A DNA stretch of 64,000 nt from the NCBI GenBank assembly GCA_002309075.1, contig DBWP01000015.1:1612-65611 (forward strand). Direction: 5' to 3'. Positions 43,470 through 56,076 of this stretch are shown here, piece after piece (position 1 is the first letter of the stretch; each line of letters starts with the position of its first letter). The notes beneath the pieces were generated by a model. The model saw only the letters and a program-made list of their open reading frames with translations, had not been told where the DNA came from and did not search any database. The translations under genes and the position numbers were made by a program. Source of the DNA: Candidatus Saccharibacteria bacterium UBA1235. GTDB lineage: Bacteria; Patescibacteriota; Saccharimonadia; Saccharimonadales; Saccharimonadaceae.

Positions 43470-44186
43470 TCACATGCCCTCTAGCATGGCAGCATCAAGT
43501 CTTAGAGTTTTACCATCATTTAATATGAGTAAAGTTGCCCATCCGCTATTTCCCGCCTCGTTAGAATATATATTTTCTTTAATTCCAGCTCCAATTCCAT
43601 CAACCACAAAACCGTCAATTTTTAACGTTCCTTTAACATTGAACGTATTTCCACTTTGCTCGTCAACCGGAACATATTGAACTGTTCCATCCGTCATAAT
43701 AAAACCTATTCCATTCTTAAAGCCTTCGAGCATCGTATTTGTAAGTAAAATCGGTTTGTAAATCTTGCCATTCACGCCATTAACCTGACAGCTTTCTGAC
43801 TCAGAATCCTCATCGGCATCTTCCCGTTCTATACTACATCTAATTATTTCCCCATTCTCAATTCTAATGCTGACATATTTATATTGATAATCTTCATAAT
43901 TTTCGTTATCGTCGTGATCATGGCTATCGCCTATCTCTATAGTCGAAGTGATACTAAGTGTGTAAGCCGCCGGCGCTTCTGCCGTTATAACTGCATTCGA
44001 GCCCGTGCGAGAAATTTCACTTCCCGAAGCCGTCGAACCCTGCGTTGTCACATCGTTATTTCTCGTAACAAGCATTGCGATACCAAAAACTAATCCGGCC
44101 ACCGCCACCGCCGTCATAATAATTCCAAAAATTTTCCAATTAAACCTAGACCTTTTTGTTTCTTGTAAAATTATATCGTCTTGCAT
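43470..44186 (-). CDS. Hypothetical single-TM protein
   Basis: N-terminal TM followed by a beta-rich extracellular domain. Confidence 0.7.
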   Translation of the reverse strand: MQDDIILQETKRSRFNWKIFGIIMTAVAVAGLVFGIAMLVTRNNDVTTQGSTASGSEISRTGSNAVITAEAPAAYTLSITSTIEIGDSHDHDDNENYEDYQYKYVSIRIENGEIIRCSIEREDADEDSESESCQVNGVNGKIYKPILLTNTMLEGFKNGIGFIMTDGTVQYVPVDEQSGNTFNVKGTLKIDGFVVDGIGAGIKENIYSNEAGNSGWATLLILNDGKTLRLDAAMLEGM

Positions 44187-44222
44187 AAAAAATCCCTTTT
44201 ATGCTTATAATTATATCACAAA

Positions 44223-46073
44223 CTAATCGCGTTTTAGCATTACAGTAAAGGCCTCTGACGGAATATCAATTTTTCCGAACCGTTTCATTCGTGCCTTACC
44301 GCGCTTTTGTTTTTCAAGAAGTTTTGCTTTTCGATCCCTATCACCAGTATGAATTTTTACCGTCACATCTTTTCGGTATGCACCAATCGTTTCGCGCGCA
44401 ATAATTCTCGCACCGATCGCCGCTTGAAGCGCAACTTCCCAGTTTTGTCGAGGAATTACTTCCTTCAATTTTTTAGTCGTTTCTCGTCCGATTGCATCCG
44501 CCTCTGACCTGTGGCACATGATAGAAAGTGCATCAATTTTATGACCACCAACTAGAAAATCTACTCGCACTAAATCTTCTGTTCTGTAGCCAGAAAGTTC
44601 ATAATTAAACGATGCATATCCGCTCGTCGCCGATTTTAACTGATCATAAAAATCCGTTAGAAGATTCGCCATCGGCGCCTCAAAATCAATCACCGCCCGA
44701 TCTTCAATATATGATAAATTCGTCTGCAGCCCGCGTTTTTCGTTAATAAGATTTAAGACATTTCCAATCATCGACTTTGGCAAAATAATTTCGCCTTTTA
44801 CCCAAGGCTCCCGAATTTCAAGAACCTCGCTCATGTCCGGAAGATCTGCCGCCGATTTGATTTCTAAAATCTCACCATTATTTAAAACTACTTCATAATT
44901 TGTAGATGGATTCGTGATAATAAGATCGAGTCCAAATTCTCGCTCCAAACGTTCCCGAATAATATCCATATGGAGAAGCCCCAAAAAACCAATCCGAAGC
45001 CCAAACCCAAGAACTGGCGAATTTTCCGGCTCATAAACCAGCGCCGAATCCGATAAGGAAAGTTTTTCAATCGCTTCTTTTAAATCTTTGTATTGATCAT
45101 TCGATACAGGGAAAAATCCCGCATACACAAACGGAAGAACATGTTTATATCCAGGCAAAGCTTGCGCCGCTGGATTTTTTGCAATAGTCACCGTATCACC
45201 AACTCGTGCTTCACGTGTAGTCTTTAAGTTTGTAACAATGTATCCAATCTCACCTTCTGACAATTTTTCTCGCGGCGACATTTTCGGCGTTAAAACTCCG
45301 ACTTCAAGCGCCAAGCCCTTTGTTCCTGCCGCCATCATCAAAATTTCCGCATTCTTCTTAATTTCACCTTCAAAAATCCGAACATACAAAACCACCCCCC
45401 GATAATCATCAAAATAGGAGTCAAAAATCAAAGCTTTAGTAGAAACACCATCACTTAATTCTCGGCCCGCGTCCGCTCGGCCCGTCGCCACGGGCGAGCG
45501 GCGCTTTTCCTCGCCTTGCCAGGCTCCGGATGACCTCGAATCAAGCGATGGCGTTTCTATTATGGCATCTAAAATTTTATCGACTCCAAGTCCGGTTTTA
45601 CCCGAAGCTTCAATAATTTCGTCTCGCGAACATCCAAGAAGATTTATAATTTGTGCCGCTACGCCTTCCACATCTGCCGCAGGCAAATCAACTTTATTAA
45701 TTACTGGAATAATTTTAAGATCCTGTTCAAGTGCAAGATAAACATTCGCGAGAGTCTGTGCCTGAATTCCCTGCGTTGCATCAACCACAAGCACCGCTGT
45801 CTCAACCGCCTGTAGACTCCTTGAAACTTCATATGAAAAATCCACGTGGCCCGGCGTATCGATTAAATTTAAAGTATATCCTTTCCAATTCATCGTTACT
45901 GGCGCAAGTTTGATCGTAATACCCTTCTCGCGCTCAAGCTCCATTGAATCTAAAAGCTGCTCTTTCATTTCGCGCTTAGAAACCGTCCCGGAAAGCTCCA
46001 TCATCCGATCCGCGATCGTCGATTTTCCATGATCAATATGCGCAATAATGCAAAAGTTTCGAATCTTATCCAT
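44223..46073 (-). CDS. lepA: Elongation factor 4 (LepA) with in-frame palindromic insertion
   Basis: IRNFCIIAHIDHGKST, DTPGHVDF, NKVD, GFLGLLH, KLLEKQK.GK.RMK. Confidence 0.98.
   Translation of the reverse strand: MDKIRNFCIIAHIDHGKSTIADRMMELSGTVSKREMKEQLLDSMELEREKGITIKLAPVTMNWKGYTLNLIDTPGHVDFSYEVSRSLQAVETAVLVVDATQGIQAQTLANVYLALEQDLKIIPVINKVDLPAADVEGVAAQIINLLGCSRDEIIEASGKTGLGVDKILDAIIETPSLDSRSSGAWQGEEKRRSPVATGRADAGRELSDGVSTKALIFDSYFDDYRGVVLYVRIFEGEIKKNAEILMMAAGTKGLALEVGVLTPKMSPREKLSEGEIGYIVTNLKTTREARVGDTVTIAKNPAAQALPGYKHVLPFVYAGFFPVSNDQYKDLKEAIEKLSLSDSALVYEPENSPVLGFGLRIGFLGLLHMDIIRERLEREFGLDLIITNPSTNYEVVLNNGEILEIKSAADLPDMSEVLEIREPWVKGEIILPKSMIGNVLNLINEKRGLQTNLSYIEDRAVIDFEAPMANLLTDFYDQLKSATSGYASFNYELSGYRTEDLVRVDFLVGGHKIDALSIMCHRSEADAIGRETTKKLKEVIPRQNWEVALQAAIGARIIARETIGAYRKDVTVKIHTGDRDRKAKLLEKQKRGKARMKRFGKIDIPSEAFTVMLKRD
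45440..45559 (-). repeat. In-frame palindromic element in lepA (120 nt)
   Basis: 22-bp terminal stem with 3 G-T pairs; core gctcgcccgtggcgacgggccgagc. Confidence 0.9.
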
Positions 46074-46102
46074 ATATACTATATTATATAATATTTCACA
46101 AA

Positions 46103-46132
46103 AAAATAAACCCCTATACGGGGGTTTATTTT
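46103..46132 (-). terminator. Intrinsic terminator
   Basis: aaaataaacccc...ggggtttatttt. Confidence 0.8.
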
Positions 46133-46141
46133 CTTTAATAA

Positions 46142-47158
46142 TTAGAGATGTACTGTAGATTCTCCAGAATCATCCCGGCAAGTAGTTCCAAAGAAAGCTT
46201 TCTTCAAGTCTTCTGTATTATATTCGCTACAACTAGCATAATCCTGTCCCCCGTAGAAGAATTGCCATTCAGCTGTTGGGCTAACTCGGTAAAACTCCCC
46301 GCGTCCGCCATTCATGCCGACGGTTATTCTTTGATGAGAATCAGCCCCATCTATTATTTTACCACCAGGATGTAATTTTATAGGATATTCACCAGTTTTA
46401 TTATAATATGCCATTATAAGCGATTTAGCTAAAGTTTTTTCTTCATCCGTTAACCAAGACCAATTAGCTTCCGCACAGTCTAAATAAACCTCTGTATTAT
46501 CATCAAAAATCCCACATACGACATTGATATTTGCATTATAATATCCCTCGAGAATTGGGCCAGCAGAACCCATAAATGGAATTTCACCAATAGCACTAAA
46601 ACCAGCGTCTACCAAATTAGCGCTCATTACCGAAACAGTATTCCCAGCATTTGATGTACTTATTGATGCCTCAAGAACATTTTCTAACGGCACAAACGTT
46701 TCCGTTCCATCAAACTTATATGACAAATCAAACATATTATCGCCCCGGATCTCACCACCAAAATTATCGAAACTAGACATTATATTCGTCATCAAATCTC
46801 TAACGCCCTTATATTCCGACACGGTACTTCCAGTAGCTGTCCCGTTATTTTCATCCGGCGTAGTTGTTGAACCGTTATTATTTGCGTTTGGATTGTTTGT
46901 TGGTTTATTCCCAACATAGCTTATACCAAAGAACAAAGCTATAACCGCAAAAATCAATGCAAGCGCGCCAAGCACAATGGCAAGAATTTTTATCTTTTTT
47001 ATCGATGAGTCTGTAGTTGCCGAAGTAACCACCGGTACCACCGGCGTCGACTCAGACATCGGTTCAGACACTGATGCTGATGCATTTAAAGGATTATCTT
47101 GTTGTACTGGTGCATCATTAGCCCCAGCTTGTTGATTAAAGCTATTCTGATCTTCCAT
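46142..47158 (-). CDS. Hypothetical single-TM surface protein
   Basis: Low-complexity N-terminus, TM at about aa 57-80, Cys-containing extracellular domain. Confidence 0.7.
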   Translation of the reverse strand: MEDQNSFNQQAGANDAPVQQDNPLNASASVSEPMSESTPVVPVVTSATTDSSIKKIKILAIVLGALALIFAVIALFFGISYVGNKPTNNPNANNNGSTTTPDENNGTATGSTVSEYKGVRDLMTNIMSSFDNFGGEIRGDNMFDLSYKFDGTETFVPLENVLEASISTSNAGNTVSVMSANLVDAGFSAIGEIPFMGSAGPILEGYYNANINVVCGIFDDNTEVYLDCAEANWSWLTDEEKTLAKSLIMAYYNKTGEYPIKLHPGGKIIDGADSHQRITVGMNGGRGEFYRVSPTAEWQFFYGGQDYASCSEYNTEDLKKAFFGTTCRDDSGESTVHL

Positions 47159-47182
47159 AAGTATATTATAACATACTTATGT

Positions 47183-49360
47183 TTATTCAACTCCGATCAT
47201 CGAAAGCGATAATTTCCCTCTTTCATCAACCGCTACGAGTCTTACACGTATCTTGTCTCCAACATGCAAAACTTCGTCAACGCTTTTAAGTCGCTTCTTG
47301 TCCGTAATTTGCGAAATATGAAGCATCCCATCAACTCCTGGCATAATATTTACGAACGCGCCAAAATCCTTAATCGTCACAACCGTTCCTTCGTAAATTT
47401 TTCCAACTTCCGGCTCATCAATCAAAGAATGAATCCAATCTAGAGCTTTTTTAATACTCTCAGCGTTCGTGCCAGCCACTGTCACAAGCCCAGAATCTTC
47501 AATATCAACTTCCGCACCAGTTTCCGACGTAATCTTATTAATCGTTTCGCCGCCCTTGCCAATAATCATTCCGATCTTTTCCGGCTTCACCATCAATTTT
47601 TCAATTTGTGGCGCAAACTTAGAAATCTCCGCACGCGGCTTATCGATCACACTCATGATATGATCGAGGATAAACATTCGTCCTTCATGACTTTGCTTCA
47701 AGGCTTTTTCCATAATTTCAACTGGAAGGCCATGCACTTTCATGTCCATTTGGAGCGCAGTAATACCTTCAGTTGTACCAGTTACCTTAAAGTCCATATC
47801 ACCCGCAAAATCTTCCGCGTCCATAAGGTCCGTAAGAACATACGCCTTATCGATGTCTGAAGCTTCGATTGGCTGTCCCTTAGGAACATCCACCATAAGC
47901 CCCATCGCCACACCAGAAACTGGGCGCGAAATTGGCACACCTGCATCCATCAAAGCCATACAAGACGAACAAGTCGCAGCCATCGAAGTCGAACCATTTT
48001 GCGACATAATTTCAGTCACCGAACGAATCGCGTAAGGGAAATCTTCTTCAGAAGGAAGTACTGGAATCAAAGCTCTTTCCGCCAAATATCCGTGTCCAAT
48101 CTCACGACGTCCTGGCGAACCAATTCGTCCCGGCTCTCCAACCGTATAAGACGGCGCGTTATAATGATGCATATAGCGACGCTTTCCGTTCGTCACTTCC
48201 ATCGTATCGACTTCTTGCGCATAAGACAAAGGTGCAAGCGTCACAATATTCATCGCCTGTGTTACGCCACGCGTAAAGAGCGACGAACCATGCGTTCTTG
48301 GCAAAATCCCAACTTGCGAAGACAGAGGTCGTACTTCGTTTAATTTTCGTCCATCCGGACGCACGCCTTCCTCAACAATACCACGTCGAACTTCTTTATG
48401 AACGGCAAGTTCAAACGCCTGATCATAAACATCACGCAAATTCTCGTCATACCATTCAACTTTTTCGTTATCCGTCTCGCCCTGACCTTTAGACAATGCA
48501 AACTCATCATGCATCGCGTATTTAATATCATCGAGCATCTGCGCGCGTTCCATCACATTTCCACGAATCTTCGAGCCAAATTTGCTCGCCGTCCAGTTAG
48601 CAACTTCTTCTAAAATCGCTTCATCTGGCAAAACCAATTCATATTCCTGCTCTGGAGCCGCAACCTGCTTAGAAAGTTCGCGCTGTAAGTCCAAAACCGG
48701 CTGCACATTCGAAACTGCCCAATGCATCGCTTCTAGAATCGTCTCTTCAGGAACTTCTTTCGCGCCCGCCTCAACCATCATAATCTTGCCATCTTTGCAA
48801 GCCACCACAAGATCAAGCGGCGAAATTTCGCGCTCTTCTGGGCTTAAGAAGCCCTTAAATTCACCACCAATTCGTCCAATCCTAATTCCAGCAATTGGCC
48901 CGTCAAACGGCACACCCGCATTCATGAGCGCAGAAGACGCCGCAATCATCGCTACACAATCCGGCCTAAAATTCGGATCCATCGACAAAACCGTACAAAC
49001 CACCTGCACTTCCTGACGGTAGCCCTTCGGGAAAAGCGGGCGAATCGGTCGGTCAATTAACCGCCCCACAAGAACCGCCTCATCCGCCGGTTTTCCTTCA
49101 CGCTTAATAAATTTCGATCCACTAATTTTCCCCGCCGCATACCATTTTTCTTCATAATCAATCGATAACGGGAAGAAATCTTGTACTACTGGCTTCGTTC
49201 CAACTACTACCGACCCTAGAACCACTGTGTCACCATAAGTAACCAAAACACTAGACGTTGTTCTAAATCCAACCCGATTCACCTCAAGCGTCAATTTCCG
49301 CCCCAACCACTCCGTTGAAACCTGAATCGTCTTTTTTCCGTTCGGATTAATAATCTCCAT
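47183..49360 (-). CDS. pnp: Polyribonucleotide nucleotidyltransferase
   Basis: FFPLSIDYEEK, RLIDRPIRPLFP, RRE.GHG.LAERAL, SQNGSTSMA, DFAGDMDFKV, KH and S1 domains. Confidence 0.98.
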   Translation of the reverse strand: MEIINPNGKKTIQVSTEWLGRKLTLEVNRVGFRTTSSVLVTYGDTVVLGSVVVGTKPVVQDFFPLSIDYEEKWYAAGKISGSKFIKREGKPADEAVLVGRLIDRPIRPLFPKGYRQEVQVVCTVLSMDPNFRPDCVAMIAASSALMNAGVPFDGPIAGIRIGRIGGEFKGFLSPEEREISPLDLVVACKDGKIMMVEAGAKEVPEETILEAMHWAVSNVQPVLDLQRELSKQVAAPEQEYELVLPDEAILEEVANWTASKFGSKIRGNVMERAQMLDDIKYAMHDEFALSKGQGETDNEKVEWYDENLRDVYDQAFELAVHKEVRRGIVEEGVRPDGRKLNEVRPLSSQVGILPRTHGSSLFTRGVTQAMNIVTLAPLSYAQEVDTMEVTNGKRRYMHHYNAPSYTVGEPGRIGSPGRREIGHGYLAERALIPVLPSEEDFPYAIRSVTEIMSQNGSTSMAATCSSCMALMDAGVPISRPVSGVAMGLMVDVPKGQPIEASDIDKAYVLTDLMDAEDFAGDMDFKVTGTTEGITALQMDMKVHGLPVEIMEKALKQSHEGRMFILDHIMSVIDKPRAEISKFAPQIEKLMVKPEKIGMIIGKGGETINKITSETGAEVDIEDSGLVTVAGTNAESIKKALDWIHSLIDEPEVGKIYEGTVVTIKDFGAFVNIMPGVDGMLHISQITDKKRLKSVDEVLHVGDKIRVRLVAVDERGKLSLSMIGVE

Positions 49361-49376
49361 GAAAATATCCTTTCTT

Positions 49377-49423
49377 GGGAAAACTCCAGATATAAGCCCC
49401 TATCTCATATCTGCCGTCTTCCC
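49377..49423 (-). promoter_or_regulatory. Long hairpin in the pnp 5-prime leader
   Basis: GGGAAGAC/GUUUUCCC and CAGAUAUGAG/CUUAUAUCUG stems separated by a 2x2 loop; TGgTACAAT upstream. Confidence 0.7.
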
Positions 49424-49453
49424 CTTGTTAATGTTATATCTATTGTACCACAG

Positions 49454-49483
49454 CTTGACTTTTTTAGCAATCTGTGCTATAAT
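49454..49483 (+). promoter_or_regulatory. Promoter TTGACT-N17-TATAAT
   Basis: cttgacttttttagcaatctgtgctataat. Confidence 0.8.
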
Positions 49484-49544
49484 AAGAAAGATGGGGTAAT
49501 TCTGCCTCATCGAACTTTGAAATTCTCAGGGGAGGTGTAGTTAA

Positions 49545-50177
49545 TTGGACTACAGAGACGAAGATTTGTTGGAAGAAATGTTCGAAAAGTACGCAGATGA
49601 GTGCGAAGACGCTTTAAATATCGCTCTCGCACGAATCAAAAACGTAAAAAGCGCAATTGAGCGCGCCGGAGATGACAGCCATATTGATCTCCTTGCTAGT
49701 CGCATTAAAACCTTTGAATCGACAAAGGAGAAATGCGGACGCAGAGGGTATGATTTTAATATGAAGAGCATTAAGAAGAATGTTCGGGACATCGCCGGAA
49801 TCCGCATTATTACTGTTTTCAGAGACGAAATTTATTCTGTCGTGGAGATGCTTCATCATATTCCAGGACTGAACGTCGAAGACGAAACGGATTATGTGAA
49901 ATGCCCGAAGCAAAACGGCTACTCAAGCTACCATATGCACGTTTTGGTTGAAATCTACAATCCTATAGAGAATAGCACAAAGCTAATCCCTATCGAAATT
50001 CAGATTAGGAGTCAGAGCATGCACTACTGGGCTTCAGCGGAGCACAAGTTAAAGTACAAAAATAGCGACGCTGATCCAAGAGTGGCAGAATCATTCAAAA
50101 ACCTTGCTGATTCTTTAGCTAAATCGGACGAGATCGCAATTCAATTACGCGACGCGAACAAAGATTCTTCCAACTAA
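49545..50177 (+). CDS. Small alarmone synthetase (RelP/RelQ-like RelA_SpoT domain)
   Basis: RIK..ES..EK, DIAGIRII, DYV..PK.NGYSSYH, EIQIRS..MHYWASAEHKLKYK; TTG start after GGAGGTG. Confidence 0.9.
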   Translation: MDYRDEDLLEEMFEKYADECEDALNIALARIKNVKSAIERAGDDSHIDLLASRIKTFESTKEKCGRRGYDFNMKSIKKNVRDIAGIRIITVFRDEIYSVVEMLHHIPGLNVEDETDYVKCPKQNGYSSYHMHVLVEIYNPIENSTKLIPIEIQIRSQSMHYWASAEHKLKYKNSDADPRVAESFKNLADSLAKSDEIAIQLRDANKDSSN

Positions 50178-50178
50178 C

Positions 50179-50206
50179 AAAAACCCCGCTTCACGCGGGG
50201 ATTTTT
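50179..50206. terminator. Bidirectional terminator
   Basis: aaaaaccccgc-ttcac-gcgggg-attttt. Confidence 0.8.
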
Positions 50207-50217
50207 CTTTTCTAAAG

Positions 50218-50484
50218 TTATTTCCTAAGTCCGAGCTTAGCAACAGTCTTCTTATATAGCTCAAAGTTAGTCTCTTCGAGGTACTTAAGAAGTTTTTTAC
50301 GCTTCCCGACCATCTGCATGAGACCGCGTTTAGCCATAAAGTCATGTTTATTATTCTTAACGTGCTCAGTCACCTCTTTGATGCGAGCGGTAAGAATAGC
50401 CACTTGAACTTCAGGAGAACCAACATCGGCTTTGTTACGAGCGACACTGGCAATAGCTTTATCCTTATTCTCTTTTGTTATCAT
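50218..50484 (-). CDS. rpsO: 30S ribosomal protein S15
   Basis: DVGSPEVQVAILT.RI, H...NKHD, RGL..MVGKRKKLL.YL. Confidence 0.98.
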   Translation of the reverse strand: MITKENKDKAIASVARNKADVGSPEVQVAILTARIKEVTEHVKNNKHDFMAKRGLMQMVGKRKKLLKYLEETNFELYKKTVAKLGLRK

Positions 50485-50522
50485 ACCCCCATTATAACAC
50501 AGTTTTATGGTATAATCAAGAG

Positions 50523-51179
50523 ATGAATCCTGAAGACCGAATCATCTTAATCGATAAACCTGCTGGAATTTCCAGTTTTGGTGTCGTAGCTAAAGTTCGC
50601 GCAAGGCTCCGCGACGAATTTGGACATAAGGTTAAGGTCGGCCACACCGGAACACTCGACCCTTTCGCAACAGGCCTTCTAATTTTACTATCTGGCAAAA
50701 TGACTAAAAAATCGGGAGATTTCTTAAAACTTGACAAGGTTTACGAAGCAACCCTAAAGCTCGGTTACGTTTCTTCCACTGGCGATCCAGAAGGAGAGAT
50801 TCAAGAATATCCAAGCGAAGGGCCAGAAGATGAGCGTTCCGAGAAAGACGTATCTCTGGTGCTTAACAGCTTCGTTGGTGAAATTGAACAAACTCCCCCT
50901 CGTTTTAGCGCTATCAAAATTAATGGTGAGCGCGCTTATAAACTAGCCCGGAAAGGTAAAGATTTTGAGATCCCTTCCCGTAAAGTCACCATATATAGCA
51001 TTGAAATTTTGGACTATAATTATCCTGAATTAAAAATCCGCTGTCATGTTAGTTCTGGTACATATATTCGGACTCTCGCCGAAGACATCGGCAAAAAACT
51101 CGGAACCGGCGCTTATCTAACATCGCTTCGTCGTCTCAAAATCGCAAACTACGACGTAAAAGATGCTTCTGTGCTATAA
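50523..51179 (+). CDS. truB: tRNA pseudouridine(55) synthase TruB
   Basis: DKPAG.SSF, KVGHTGTLDPFATG, Q.PP.FSAIK..G.RAY, SSGTYIRTL. Confidence 0.97.
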   Translation: MNPEDRIILIDKPAGISSFGVVAKVRARLRDEFGHKVKVGHTGTLDPFATGLLILLSGKMTKKSGDFLKLDKVYEATLKLGYVSSTGDPEGEIQEYPSEGPEDERSEKDVSLVLNSFVGEIEQTPPRFSAIKINGERAYKLARKGKDFEIPSRKVTIYSIEILDYNYPELKIRCHVSSGTYIRTLAEDIGKKLGTGAYLTSLRRLKIANYDVKDASVL

Positions 51180-51186
51180 TTAGGTT

Positions 51187-51792
51187 ATGTTAGTTTATGC
51201 ATCAAAGTTAATTGGCGCTCCAATTCTCAGCATGCAATCTGCTGGCCCGATCGGAGTTATTACTGATCTCGTCGTAGACCCAAATACTCTTAAAATTCTC
51301 GCTTTTCGCATTAAAGGTCCGCTCGTTAAAACTGCAAATATTCTTGATGTAAAATCCGTCCGAGAATATTCTAAATATGGTTGCGTCGTGGATTCAATTG
51401 ACGAACTCGTCGAAAAAGGCGATATTATAAAAGTTAGTGAAATTATTGATCTTAATTTTGATTTAAATGGCCTTAAAGTTGAAACTAAAAAGAAAACTAA
51501 ACTCGGCCACGTCATTGATTTTACCGTCACTTCAGAAGATTTTAACGTAAAGCAAATTATCGTAAAACGCCCGCTTGTCAAAAGTTTTCTTGATTCTGAG
51601 CTTATTATCCCACGTAGCGAAATTACCGAAGTCACCGATTATAAAATAATCGTAAAAGACGAAGAAAAAACTATTAAAGAAAAAGCTGAAACAACCGAAT
51701 TTGTGCCAAATTTTGTCAATCCTTTTCGTAAGACCGAACCAGCTCACTCGCCAGCTGCCACGCAAACCCCTGCCGACACAGATATTGAGTAA
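51187..51792 (+). CDS. Tandem PRC-barrel domain protein
   Basis: Two PRC-barrel-like repeats (GVITDLVVDP; GHVIDF.V). Confidence 0.7.
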   Translation: MLVYASKLIGAPILSMQSAGPIGVITDLVVDPNTLKILAFRIKGPLVKTANILDVKSVREYSKYGCVVDSIDELVEKGDIIKVSEIIDLNFDLNGLKVETKKKTKLGHVIDFTVTSEDFNVKQIIVKRPLVKSFLDSELIIPRSEITEVTDYKIIVKDEEKTIKEKAETTEFVPNFVNPFRKTEPAHSPAATQTPADTDIE

Positions 51793-52474
51793 GTTTTTCG
51801 TCATCATATTTTGCGCGTTTTTTCGCAATTATTTTTAAAATTTCCTCTTCGTCGCTTCTGCCAGAATCTCGTAAGACTTCCTCAATAATATCTTTTGAGA
51901 TTCCTTTTTTCAAAAGTTCCATTTTAAGACGCTTCTGGCTCACTCCTTTTTTAACAAACCGATTTTCAACATACCATTCTGCAAACTTAAAATCATCTAT
52001 ATAGCCATGAGACTTGAGACGTTCTATGATTCTTAATGAAAACTCAGAAACGTCTATCGAGGAGCTTTCGCGACCAACGGGGAGCGAGTGAAAGCCGGCT
52101 CGCCCGTAACGACGGGCCGAGCCAAGCGTCTCCGAGATAGATGTTCTGAGTTTTTTATATAAATAATCGCTGAGTTCTTTTTCACTTCGCGGCCGCAAGA
52201 GAACCCACTCTAATGCTCTTTGGTATAATTTTCCAAATTCTGAAGCTTTTTTGTATTCTAAAAGCTCTTCCTCAGAAATTATTGATCCAACTTTTAATTT
52301 AAAATCCACAACTTGCGTAAGGTCAAGCGAAAATTCATATTTAGAATTTATGAAAACATTTACCCGATTTGGATTTTTTATTCCCTGCTTTAAGTTCGTA
52401 ATTTGAAGCTCCTGAGATTTTTCAAAATCACTAGAGCCTTCCTGAATTTTCTCGCCTAATTTATAAATTTCCAT
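51716..52474 (-). CDS. recX: Regulatory protein RecX with in-frame palindromic insertion
   Basis: RALEWVLLRPRSEKEL, GYIDD.KFA..YV, L..EL.KKGI, YL.RQGF; located downstream of recA. Confidence 0.9.
   Translation of the reverse strand: MEIYKLGEKIQEGSSDFEKSQELQITNLKQGIKNPNRVNVFINSKYEFSLDLTQVVDFKLKVGSIISEEELLEYKKASEFGKLYQRALEWVLLRPRSEKELSDYLYKKLRTSISETLGSARRYGRAGFHSLPVGRESSSIDVSEFSLRIIERLKSHGYIDDFKFAEWYVENRFVKKGVSQKRLKMELLKKGISKDIIEEVLRDSGRSDEEEILKIIAKKRAKYDDEKLTQYLCRQGFAWQLASELVRSYEKD
52039..52154 (+). repeat. In-frame palindromic element in recX (116 nt, antisense to the gene)
   Basis: Arms aaaactcagaaacgtctatc and gatagatgttctgagtttt; core gctcgcccgtaacgacgggccgagc. Confidence 0.9.
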
Positions 52475-53018
52475 GTTGCAAAAACCATTCTTTAAGACAC
52501 TTAAAAGTCAAACTATCTTTTTTAAGCGGCGCTTTTGCATATTTTTCACGAAATTCATCCGTTTCATCAAAAGAAATCCATCTAACTTCAGAAACTTCTT
52601 CATCATTAAAATGGAAATTTTCTTCTTTTCCAGTAAAATCAACCGCATAAACCCACGCGAAACGATTCTTATTAAACGGACGCATCGTCACGAAATTCAA
52701 ATCTTCTTCCGAAATAATTGTCCCAATTTCTTCTCGGGTTTCTCTCACCGCCGCCTGAACCACAGATTCACCTAAATTAACATGTCCACCCGCCGAAATG
52801 TCATAATCTCCTGGAAAACGATCGACTTTTTCTGAACGCCTTTGCCATAGAAGCTCTAGTTCCCCCTCAGAATTTTTTCGATACAAAAACACCACAGCCA
52901 CCCCAACAATCGCGCTCGAACCACTTTTTTCTGGGTTATCTAAAGCCGAATCCCATGAAGAACCGGGGATTGGTTCCCCATTCGGAGCATAAACTTGCCA
53001 AGCCTCATCTTTATGCAT
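52461..53018 (-). CDS. NUDIX hydrolase
   Basis: SAGGHVNLGES...AAVRETREEIG Nudix box. Confidence 0.9.
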   Translation of the reverse strand: MHKDEAWQVYAPNGEPIPGSSWDSALDNPEKSGSSAIVGVAVVFLYRKNSEGELELLWQRRSEKVDRFPGDYDISAGGHVNLGESVVQAAVRETREEIGTIISEEDLNFVTMRPFNKNRFAWVYAVDFTGKEENFHFNDEEVSEVRWISFDETDEFREKYAKAPLKKDSLTFKCLKEWFLQHGNL

Positions 53019-53026
53019 ATCAATTT

Positions 53027-54049
53027 CTAGGCTTCCGCCGCCGCTTTCTCGCGGACTTGTTTTTCAATTTCCGCCATTAATTCCGGTTTTTCTTTAAACA
53101 ATTTCTTCACAGCCTCACGACCTTGTCCTAAAGTCTCGCCGTTGTATTTAATAAATGCACCCGCCTTATCTAGGATTCCATATTGCACGCCAAGATCCAA
53201 AACATCACCCGTCTTTGAAATGCCTTCGTTATACATAATATCAAATTCCGCCGTTCTAAATGGCGCCGCAATTTTATTTTTTACAACCTTAATTTTTGTC
53301 CTGTTTCCAGAAATATTTTCGCCTTCTTTAATCTGGCCAATTCGGCGAATATCAACTCTTACCGAAGCATAAAACTTCAAGGCGTTACCGCCTGTTGTGG
53401 TTTCTGGATTTCCGAACATCACGCCAATCTTCATGCGAATTTGGTTAATAAAGATTACTGTAGCTTTAGATTTAGAAATAATACCAGTAAGTTTTCGCAT
53501 CGCCTGCGACATAAGCCGCGCTTGAAGTCCCATTTGCGCATCACCCATTTCCCCATCAATTTCCGCTTGTGGAACCAACGCCGCAACCGAGTCAACCACA
53601 ATCAAATCCACCGCGTTTGACCTAACCAAAGTTTCACAAATTTCGAGCGCTTGTTCGCCGTTATCCGGCTGAGAAATTAACAAATTCGCTGTATCGACGC
53701 CAATTTTCTTCGCATAAGCTGGGTCGAGGGCATGCTCCGCATCAATAAACGCCGCCTGGCCGCCTTGTTTCTGAATTTCTGCAATTGCATGAAGCGCCAA
53801 AGTTGTCTTACCAGAAGACTCTGGCCCATAAATCTCGATAATGCGCCCCTTCGGGTAACCACCTCCAAGCGCAAGATCTAGCGCTAAAGAACCAGACGGC
53901 AAAAGTTCGACATCCATCTTTGGCGTCTCGCCAAGTTTCATAATCGAACCATCACCAAACTGCTTCGTAATTTGAGCAATCGCAAGCTTTAGAGCTTCGT
54001 TCTTTCCGTCATTTTTATTATCTTCCACCACCGCGTCTTTCTTTGCCAT
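53027..54049 (-). CDS. recA: Recombinase RecA
   Basis: [46 protein letters not shown]. Confidence 0.99.
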
Positions 54050-54205
54050 ATAAGTATTACCTTTCTATGATTATTATATAATATTTTTTGCTTAGAGAAT
54101 AGAGGCATTTTTTTAATTCTCTGCCCACCTTCTAGCATGGGGCAAATTATTTTTCAACCCCCCACCTTTCTACCCCTGTTCTTAAAAATATGGTATAATG
54201 GAAAA

Positions 54206-55297
54206 ATGAAGATTTTGGAAAATGTTTTATTAAAAAATCTTACGACCATGCGGCTCGGTGGCCCTGCAAAATTTGTTATTGAAATTGAAAAACCTGAAGA
54301 AATTAAAGCCGCCCACGAATTTGCGCTTGAGAAAAACTTACCTATTTTTGTTCTCGGCGGCGGCGCTAATACTATCGCAAAAGACGAGGGTTTTAACGGC
54401 GTCATCATCAAAAACGTCATGAAAGGTATCGAGGCTACGGACAGTGTTTTCGCGCAAACATTGCGACTAACGAGGAGCTTGTCGAGCGAGCCCCGTAACG
54501 ACGGGCGCGAGCGAGACGGTTTGCGCGAAAATACTTCCGTAATCATTACCGCTCTGGGCGGTACCGAATGGGACGCCGTTGTAGAATTCGCCTGTAACAA
54601 AGGCTTAACCGGTATCGAAGCCCTCTCCAAAATCCCTGGTCTCACTGGAGCTGCCCCTGTTCAAAACATCGGCGCCTATGGCCAAGATATCTCCGATACT
54701 TTCGTTTCCGCCGAAGTTTACGATTTTAAAGAAAAAACTTTTAAAACCCTAAAAAAGTCCGATTTTGGCTTTTCTTACCGTAAATCTATTCTAAATTCCT
54801 CCGAAAAAGGTCGCTATTTCGTAATTTCTATTGCTCTGGAGCTAAAAAAAGGCGAAATGAAACGCCCGTTTTATAATTCCATTGAAAAATACATCGAAGA
54901 AAATAATATTTCTGATTTTAGTCCGCTAAAAATCCGCGAAATTGTCTCTAAAATCCGCGCCGATAAATTACCAGACCCAAAATTCGAAGCTAGCGCCGGC
55001 TCTTTCTTCAAAAATATCTATCTATCCGAAGAAGAGGCAAAGCTCGCCGAAGAAAAGGGTCTCCCTGTTTATCATGGCCACGACGGATATAAAATCAATT
55101 CCGGCTGGCTCATCGAAAGCGCCGGTTTATCTGGTAAACTTCTTCATGGCTTTCGTGTAAACGAAAAAGCTGCCCTTGTTTTGATTAACGAATCTGCTAA
55201 AAGTTATGCTGATTTAGCCTCTGCCCGCGCCGAAATTATCACCGCTGTCAAAGAAAAATTCGGCTACACATTAGAACAGGAGCCCGTCGAACTATGA
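54206..55297 (+). CDS. murB: UDP-N-acetylenolpyruvoylglucosamine reductase with in-frame palindromic insertion
   Basis: TTMRLGG.A, GGGAN, IPG..GAAPVQNIGAYG, SAGSFFKN, LEQEP; start after TGGTATAAT-N6. Confidence 0.95.
   Translation: MKILENVLLKNLTTMRLGGPAKFVIEIEKPEEIKAAHEFALEKNLPIFVLGGGANTIAKDEGFNGVIIKNVMKGIEATDSVFAQTLRLTRSLSSEPRNDGRERDGLRENTSVIITALGGTEWDAVVEFACNKGLTGIEALSKIPGLTGAAPVQNIGAYGQDISDTFVSAEVYDFKEKTFKTLKKSDFGFSYRKSILNSSEKGRYFVISIALELKKGEMKRPFYNSIEKYIEENNISDFSPLKIREIVSKIRADKLPDPKFEASAGSFFKNIYLSEEEAKLAEEKGLPVYHGHDGYKINSGWLIESAGLSGKLLHGFRVNEKAALVLINESAKSYADLASARAEIITAVKEKFGYTLEQEPVEL
54436..54541 (+). repeat. In-frame palindromic element in murB (106 nt)
   Basis: 23-bp terminal stem with one bulge and one G-T pair; core cccgtaacgacgggc. 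Confidence 0.9.
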
Positions 55298-56076
55298 AAT
55301 CTCTGAACGGAAAAGAACTCGCTGATTTTATCAAAGAGCGCCAGGCGCACGAAATCCGAAGCTTAGAAAAACAACCCGTCCTTCTTATTATTCGCGACAG
55401 CGACGACCCTGTTATTTCTAAATATGTTAACCTAAAAATCCGCTACGGCGAAGATATTGGGGTAAAAGTTATCGATTTTAAAGCCTCCTCAGCCGCCGAA
55501 ATCGAAAATCGCATTAAAGAGGCAAATTTAGACCCTGAAATTGACGGAATTATTCTCCAGCTCCCTATTACAGATAAAGATAAAACCGACGAACTGACTA
55601 GTCTAATCGCCCCAGAGAAAGACGTCGACGGCCTCTCTGGAAACGGCGATTTCGATTCCGCCACCGCAACCGCCATTCTCTGGCTTCTCGCCGGCTATAA
55701 TATTAACCTAGAAACGGCAAAAATCGCTATCGTCGGCCGCGGAAAACTTGTCGGCGCCCCTCTCTATAAAATATTTTCCGCCTCAAATTACCGCGTCGAC
55801 CTCTTTCATCGAGGTTCCGATCTGAAAGAATTAGCAAATTACGACGTAATAATCACCGCCACCGGTGTTCCAGGGCTAATTACGAGCGACTTTATCCGCC
55901 CTGGCACAGTTTTAGTTGACGCCGGCACCGCCTCTGAAAAAGGCATCTTAAAAGGCGACGTATCAGATGAGGTACGCGAGAGAAACGACCTCGGCGCCAT
56001 CACCCCTGCTATTGGCGGCGTTGGCCCCTTAACCGTCTCTTGTCTTTTTGACCACGTTATTATCGCTTCTAAATAA
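55294..56076 (+). CDS. folD: Bifunctional methylenetetrahydrofolate dehydrogenase/cyclohydrolase
   Basis: GIILQLP, EKDVDG, VGRGKLVG.P, VDAG, GGVGPLTV. Confidence 0.92.
   Translation: MKSLNGKELADFIKERQAHEIRSLEKQPVLLIIRDSDDPVISKYVNLKIRYGEDIGVKVIDFKASSAAEIENRIKEANLDPEIDGIILQLPITDKDKTDELTSLIAPEKDVDGLSGNGDFDSATATAILWLLAGYNINLETAKIAIVGRGKLVGAPLYKIFSASNYRVDLFHRGSDLKELANYDVIITATGVPGLITSDFIRPGTVLVDAGTASEKGILKGDVSDEVRERNDLGAITPAIGGVGPLTVSCLFDHVIIASK

Follow-up and report, generated by a model that had tools for sequence, protein, structure and literature searches.

The window, a 64,000-nucleotide stretch of a contig from Candidatus Saccharibacteria bacterium UBA1235, carries three long hairpins inside the coding sequences of lepA, recX, and murB. 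The three share a core and differ in their outer stems. They thereby raise two questions: on which strand, and in which nucleic acid, is the fold maintained; and how do stems that are unrelated between loci stay complementary within each locus? The hairpins belong to a repeat family of GC-rich, Y-shaped palindromic DNA elements centered on one Candidatus Saccharibacteria genus. Two observations on this family are new here: the polarity of its wobble pairs follows the element strand in both gene orientations; and there is evidence for inversion of the whole hairpin and for turnover of its core.

The core motif CCCGT-RRCG-ACGGG matches the window three times (0.05 matches are expected from shuffled sequence), and the host open reading frame (ORF) is assigned by Pfam in each case. 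The lepA ORF (44223-46073, minus strand) contains a hairpin at 45442..45557, also on the minus strand, so its element strand is the mRNA strand (sense). This hairpin consists of a 5′ arm (45541-45557), a shared core unit (45459-45540), and a 3′ arm (45442-45458), and its apical hairpin, CCCGT-GGCG-ACGGG at 45481..45494, places it in family A (GGCG loop). Within the recX ORF (51716-52474, minus strand) the hairpin at 52040..52153 lies on the plus strand, and this copy therefore is antisense to its mRNA. Its parts are a 5′ arm (52040-52056), a shared core (about 52057-52138), and a 3′ arm (52139-52153), with the family B apical hairpin CCCGT-AACG-ACGGG at 52103..52116. The murB ORF (54137-55297, plus strand) holds a sense copy at 54436..54540 (plus strand; 5′ arm, 54436-54459; shared core, about 54460-54518; 3′ arm, 54519-54540), whose family B apical hairpin, again CCCGT-AACG-ACGGG, is at 54492..54505. 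All three hairpins were delimited from sequence and folds. No Rfam family corresponds to the elements: cmscan of window positions 44000-56000 at E≤1 returned only a chance sRNA match elsewhere.

Every copy of the family adopts the same Y shape, in which a long stem closes the structure and two hairpins branch off: a small one on the 5′ side and, on the 3′ side, an apical hairpin with a bulged C, whose consensus across the family is CCCGT-RRMG-ACGGG. The hairpins are about 105-120 nt long, and the sequence common to the copies is limited to a core of about 82-90 nt. Measured from the apical hairpin, information content is close to zero farther out than roughly 50 nt on the 5′ side and 26 nt on the 3′ side. 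Outside the core lie private arms of about 17-24 bp, unrelated across loci and complementary inside each locus. For example, three family A cores (lepA and two in leuS, contig C4) are 100% identical, and their flanking stems are unrelated.

The UBA1235 genome (610 kb in 18 contigs, about 41% GC) contains 15 copies, 8 with the GGCG loop and 7 with the AACG loop. All 15 lie inside long ORFs that are kept open, in three phases and in both orientations. The copies sit in frame within housekeeping genes and presumably are translated. Read by eye, the family A consensus is free of stop codons in five of its six frames. Four copies (contig C1 of this genome, G000, 86763-94299) form a cluster spanning less than 8 kb, whose distance downstream from dnaA (71738-72211) is about 15-22 kb; in other genomes, too, copies are clustered and occupy the same strand within one contig.

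The imperfect pairs of the arms bear on which strand carries the constraint. The initial annotation had noted that all five non-Watson-Crick arm pairs in the window are G-T on the element strand, three in lepA and one each in murB and recX. Refolding of the core-defined strand confirms this count: lepA has G-T pairs at 45546/45453 and 45542/45457, plus a third farther out; recX has one at 52052/52142; murB has one at 54446/54532; and A-C 1×1 mismatches are absent from the terminal stems of all three copies. Five of five, taken alone, is weak (p about 0.06). A larger sample was drawn from the lepA loci and from eighty regions of the genus, each of up to 20 kb. These yielded 138 unique orientable copies from about 28 genomes, 113 of them hosted by ORFs of at least 150 aa. 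Arms were paired by aligning the left flank with the reverse complement of the right flank, using a scoring scheme that treats G-T and A-C alike.

In this sample, the variable arms contain 107 G-T and 48 A-C pairs (p=2.4e-6). The excess has the same direction in sense copies (57:32) as in antisense copies (30:9). The wobble bias is real and is tied to the element strand, independent of the mRNA strand and of transcription. The annotation's view of strand polarity thus extends to the genus, with one amendment: the rule without exception seen in the window becomes a statistical tendency, about 70:30. The tendency persists when this genome is left out (90:42), when a single copy per site is counted (63:36), and when only isolated mismatches with at least three flanking pairs are considered, in the outer arm and distal flank (45:22). 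It also holds for the shared inner stem (20:7), and in sign tests per copy (63:21) and per site (43:16, p=6e-4).

The bias peaks 5-7 bp outside the core (36:7), is still present elsewhere (71:41), and is gone beyond the paired region of about 18 bp. Otherwise unrelated arms carry a G-T or T-G pair at these 5-7 bp positions, as at 45546/45453 in lepA and 52052/52142 in recX, and the lepA pair is conserved among orthologs. A loose count over whole local alignments gave only 210:172; these alignments ran into the unpaired flank beyond about 18 bp, and mismatches were binned by position instead.

Folding energies point the same way. Minimum free energies for the element strand and its complement, respectively, are −63 to −84 and −43 to −65 kcal/mol for the lepA hairpin, −59.2 and −52.7 for recX, and −63.6 and −51.1 for murB. 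Across the genus, folding with RNA parameters finds the element strand more stable than its complement in 130 of 138 copies; with DNA parameters the figure is 134 of 138. The difference holds for sense copies (67 of 71) as for antisense copies (40 of 42).

The orientation of the elements in the chromosome provides a second handle. In this genome, GC skew at third codon positions (GC3 skew) is bound to the DNA strand rather than to gene direction: genes on the plus strand have a value of about −0.45, and those on the minus strand, read on their coding strand, one of about +0.36. Plus-strand GC skew overall is very strong (−0.2 to −0.35 in the window and in contigs C1, C5, and C7-C9), independent of gene direction. 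By local skew, 85 copies have their element strand on the C-rich strand and 18 have it on the G-rich one (p=1e-11). The bias remains after de-duplication by site (58:16) and is found in all three major families. Host genes on the C-rich strand have 32 sense and 2 antisense copies, whereas host genes on the G-rich strand have 15 sense and 35 antisense copies, so orientation follows an asymmetry of the replication type rather than transcription. This placement is not a matter of base composition, since on the element strand the core has an excess of G (skew +0.13).

Could the wobbles simply record the mutational bias of replication? As a sole cause, this was rejected. Transitions that make a strand C-rich should give A-C pairs on that strand, yet elements with their strand on the C-rich strand have 60 G-T and 29 A-C pairs, an excess that opposes the mutational bias; elements on the G-rich strand have 12 and 6.

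A role for the hairpins in host mRNA, whether as a translational pause, a stabilizer, or a bypass signal, is one possible reason for keeping them. The stems would fold strongly as RNA, and 12 of the 15 copies in this genome are sense (3 are antisense). Genus-wide, however, 80 copies are sense and 58 antisense; wobbles of antisense copies become A-C mismatches in the mRNA, and the mRNA strand folds worse than the element strand in 40 of 42 antisense copies; orientation follows replication skew rather than gene direction; and every copy is open in frame and apparently read through. An mRNA function is thus very improbable as the reason for maintenance. Rather, the evidence indicates that the constraint acts on DNA. 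The annotation had proposed that the fold is kept for a strand-specific form of the element, either single-stranded DNA (ssDNA) or RNA, and not for host mRNA function. The stability of the element strand and the 85:18 placement agree with that proposal, and the placement favors ssDNA over RNA. From the G-T asymmetry together with placement on the C-rich strand, we infer that the constrained form is ssDNA exposed at replication.

The second question concerns the arms. Their median length is 19.5 bp (interquartile range 16-24), and 126 of 138 copies have arms of at least 10 bp. Watson-Crick pairing stays near 90% to about 18 bp past the shared core and then collapses. The arms have about 43% GC, similar to the host, and the core about 68%. 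The annotation's description of arms as locus-specific, unrelated among loci and complementary within each, therefore holds throughout, with a host-like composition besides.

The 138 copies occupy 87 sites, and sites shared between genomes hold differing loop families and both orientations. When the same site is compared between genomes, arm identity is 39% (random expectation, 33%), whereas the two arms of a single copy are about 83-90% complementary. The core is closer to a paralog in the same genome in 57 cases and to the copy at the orthologous site in 9 (median identities, 90% and 74%). Cores, then, are exchanged or homogenized between loci within a genome, at sites older than the cores that they now hold.

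Where might such arms come from? The annotation had suggested that they arise at insertion, for example through inverted copying of target sequence. In its fullest form, this reading invokes a strand-specific ssDNA (or RNA) transposition intermediate and arms made once, each pair through an inverted copy of some 20 nt of the target flank, for instance through fold-back priming from the 3′ end of the element. Several observations fit: the distribution of arm lengths is tight, and nearly all copies have arms; lepA, e108, and e098 each have one native-like arm, the other being its inverted complement; and the strand asymmetry and replication-linked orientation recall elements of the IS200/IS605 type. 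Empty sites likewise fit. At 25 empty orthologous sites in this genome, hairpin potential is no higher than at positions chosen at random from those genes (mean z 0.13, p=0.6); insertion into pre-existing palindromes was rejected on the same result.

The age of the cores speaks against this reading. Copies whose cores look youngest have arms of normal length with about 10% mismatches, no more perfect than others, and core identity to the paralog correlates neither with arm length nor with mismatch fraction. Arms that grow with age, and arms that are perfect when young, were rejected for this reason. Moreover, the same sites hold other core families and orientations, with cores nearer to same-genome paralogs; arms co-vary among orthologous copies, and continue to do so after speciation; and the whole hairpin inverts as a unit. 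The polarity of the native-like arm relative to the element varies between cases, and the element strand lies on the C-rich strand, which by the usual reading of skew is not the lagging-strand template used by IS200/IS605. Most genomes also lack the expected enzyme: no Y1/HUH transposase was found in this genome or in 55 of 61 genomes of the genus, and the corresponding profile, PF01797, has no match in this genome and exceeds the cutoff in 5 of 61. What remains of the annotation's suggestion is the relation to target sequence at lepA, e108, and e098; formation of the arms when the present element or core arrived is not supported as stated. We consider a one-time, insertion-made origin doubtful, and mobilization of the IS200/IS605 or REPIN type unlikely, because Y1 and RAYT are absent here and uncommon in the genus. 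An intact Y1 (IS200/IS605-type) ORF of about 158-162 aa does occur in a few genomes of the genus (L141, G022:C4:44075-44431; L142, G066:C7; L143, G052:C43), and the presence of Y1 among genus genomes does not track element copy number.

The lepA locus shows how arms change. In nearly all genomes of the genus, one and the same loop of LepA contains a hairpin of some kind; a few alleles are empty, and 120 homologs provide dozens of loop alleles. (The loop, at 45417-45578 of the window and running from ILDxxI to ALIFDS, is hypervariable across Saccharibacteria, with alleles of 14 to about 65 aa among P0001-P0120. It also accommodates hybrids, remnants, and other types of insert, such as a 60-aa 'SSGLEF...NIRVEN' segment in which the CCCGT core is missing.) The element adds a net 81 nt relative to empty alleles, and LepA here has 616 aa versus 588-591 (e.g., 589). 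The net gain thus equals the 27-aa core only, and the arms fill positions that belong to the native length. Over all comparisons with empty sites in this genome the net insert ranges from 21 to 47 aa, and the extra part is either the core only or the whole hairpin.

Four orthologous sense lepA copies display compensatory double changes, with G-T states between A-T and G-C. Six copies, two of them antisense, were aligned on the element strand: compensatory changes affect 18 of 47 pairs, and the arm cells hold 12 G-U and 2 A-C. Identical G-U pairs recur in sense and antisense copies, although in gene coordinates the antisense copies differ from the sense copies at both members of each of these pairs. 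Joint inversion of the core and inner arms is the simplest reading. In addition, LepA backbones at least 99% identical carry a core in either the sense or the antisense orientation with different arms (P0011 versus P0047), or hybrids (P0012), and arms between such backbones differ at 5-7 of 17 positions.

The same alignments bear on another possibility, that the elements are old and once were longer, and that the arms are their outer terminal repeats, now diverged. Ordinary selection on the hairpin would then keep the arms paired, through point compensation via G-T and without copying. The G-T intermediates among lepA orthologs (e.g., columns 32/137 and 42/127) are what this would produce, and both arms are extra in about half the comparisons with empty sites. 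But same-site arms that essentially are unalignable (39% identity versus 33% at random) nevertheless are about 90% paired, and the 5-7 differences per 17 positions separate backbones that scarcely differ. Compensated transversions (C-G to G-C) have no wobble intermediate; arm composition is host-like; and no selective agent is known. Descent of the arms from old terminal repeats is therefore unlikely, though less so than a function in mRNA.

Two near-isogenic pairs of filled and empty lepA alleles (L154/L151 and L152/L153) differ by 102 nt and 84 nt, bounded by direct repeats of 2-5 nt. The short alleles of both pairs retain one arm and a piece of the element end. With the retained end and the direct repeats, they look like deletions across the base of the hairpin, and were rejected as pristine target sites. 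A further short allele (L039, the G002 lepA loop) is an internally deleted element: its terminal stem, TTCTCGGGG...TCCGAGAG, is kept, and a 14-nt filler stands in place of both inner hairpins.

Private, complementary, host-like arms; concerted arm change; inversion of the hairpin; deletions at its base; and turnover of cores at long-lived sites together lead us to infer template switching. We give about an even chance to the proposal that the private arms are kept complementary by template switching at the hairpin during replication, with an ssDNA form constrained at that stage. The GC-rich core would nucleate growth and maintenance of the palindrome, and hence of the arms, one arm being copied from the other at the DNA level by template switching. 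The same process would invert the spacer, leaving the core and inner arms in either orientation at one site. As for strand bias, either the element-strand hairpin would be the copied form, or copies in which the exposed lagging-strand template is not the more stable strand may be the ones that persist. Both the process and the setting have precedent: template switching at inverted repeats is reported to homogenize and expand arms, to invert spacers, and to make one-step compensatory changes (PMC8604942, PMC13100816, PMC8794818); and hairpins form on ssDNA at the fork, especially on the lagging-strand template (reviewed in PMC12708500).

Several points weigh against template switching as a full account. 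No such event was directly observed at these loci. Both arms are extra relative to empty sites in about half of cases, which a single flank-copying event would not give, and the rather tight distribution of arm lengths could mean a defined insertion step. Template switching does not predict the G-T hot spot 5-7 bp outside the core (36:7). Because re-copying of an arm removes G-T and A-C mismatches alike, the bias would also require some strand-specific selection. The 18 copies with the element strand on the G-rich strand still favor G-T (12:6), and this opposes pure avoidance of the lagging-strand template, except if they inverted recently. Nor does dnaA tell leading from lagging strand: skew there drops in magnitude, from about −0.25 to about −0.1 (contig C1), and keeps its sign. 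Template switching alone, in sum, does not explain three things: the G-T bias, the G-T hot spot, and the cases in which both arms are extra.

A more speculative extension would make the family a transposase-free, replication-coupled element. The element-strand hairpin would form at the fork, on either a nascent or a template strand, and template switching would use it as a landing pad. A switch between loci would bring a copy of the core from one to the other, and a local switch would rewrite the adjoining codons into a private stem. Such a mobile element would remodel essential coding sequence and have an inherent strand polarity. We regard this only as a tentative possibility.

Within the genus, 24 of 25 sampled genomes have the apical motif in abundance; it is absent from sampled genomes of 16 other families of the order. 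A scan of 301 genomes of the class found it essentially confined to this genus, with a few sporadic matches elsewhere. One genome from another family of the order (G304) has 5 copies of the same apical hairpin with a GAAG loop, and two genomes from another genus of the same family (G319 and G307) have it sporadically. These occurrences may stem from horizontal transfer, or the family may be broader and include different apical sequences. In related assemblies, contigs end in or beside the core (G015:C83:7-20, G018:C70:48-61, G018:C89:60-73, and G015:C5:53-66), which suggests that the repeats break metagenome assemblies.

If the template-switching account is true, a lineage with minimal genomes tolerates dozens of near-perfect palindromes of 105-120 nt in essential genes, and the gene sequence adjoining each insert has been overwritten to lengthen the palindrome. 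The family would then offer a natural system for studying template-switch mutagenesis, the stability of palindromes in relation to fork direction, and the persistence of selfish DNA that lacks a transposase, in genomes where intergenic space is almost nil. There also would be practical consequences for strain typing and annotation of Saccharibacteria, through hypervariable loops such as the dozens of lepA alleles and through broken assemblies.

How do these elements relate to known systems? Literature searches found no description of this family. Template-switch (quasipalindrome) mutagenesis would account for much of what is seen at these loci, including homogenization and extension of arms, one-step compensation, and spacer inversion (PMC8604942, PMC13100816, PMC8794818). 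However, it is a mutational process and not an element family, and leaves the shared core, the spread of that core, and the G-T strand bias unexplained.

REP/REPIN-RAYT systems and IS200/IS605 resemble the present family in their strand-specific imperfect hairpins and in an orientation biased relative to replication, a likeness that is tentative for the family here. They differ in being extragenic and dependent on a Y1 HUH enzyme, whereas the elements here are intragenic and without Y1. The aligned copies have no conserved GTAG/CGTC tag at the foot of the hairpin, and no conserved tetranucleotide outside the core. Relative to IS200/IS605, the polarity with respect to skew is apparently opposite, with the C-rich strand favored here. 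Classical miniature inverted-repeat transposable elements have shared terminal inverted repeats and a direct target-site duplication. The present copies share only a short inner motif (TTCGAGG...CCGAGAA, with variants), and the direct repeat of 5 nt (CCGAA) in one filled/empty pair could equally be microhomology from a deletion.

Mitochondrial genomes provide further parallels. GC clusters and double-hairpin elements are GC-rich hairpin units in AT-richer genomes, some of them in frame. The mitochondrial genes of Nematomorpha contain coding palindromes, in which long inverted repeats exist alongside coding function (PMC6649704), and so resemble the present family in placing long inverted repeats within functional protein-coding genes. 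These are organelle genomes, compared here by their descriptions, with no report of a shared Y-shaped core with private arms or of a replication-linked orientation.

In behavior, the closest described relatives are the Rickettsia palindromic elements (RPE; Ogata et al. 2000/2002, summarized in the review PMC10969869). Both are small palindromic repeats of reduced genomes, inserted in frame in housekeeping genes whose ORFs stay open, and neither has a transposase of its own. The multi-copy palindrome of about 100-150 bp that characterizes RPE is found here as well, in 15 copies in this genome and 138 in the genus. Compared by description, the two differ in several respects. The RPE consensus is full-length and includes the ends, whereas here only the core of about 82-90 nt is common and the outer 20-bp stem is private. 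The present family, from an unrelated phylum, also reuses its sites with core turnover and inversion, has strand-biased wobbles, and ties its orientation to GC skew. The last two features together provide a testable handle on DNA versus RNA, and on leading versus lagging strand, that RPE do not offer.

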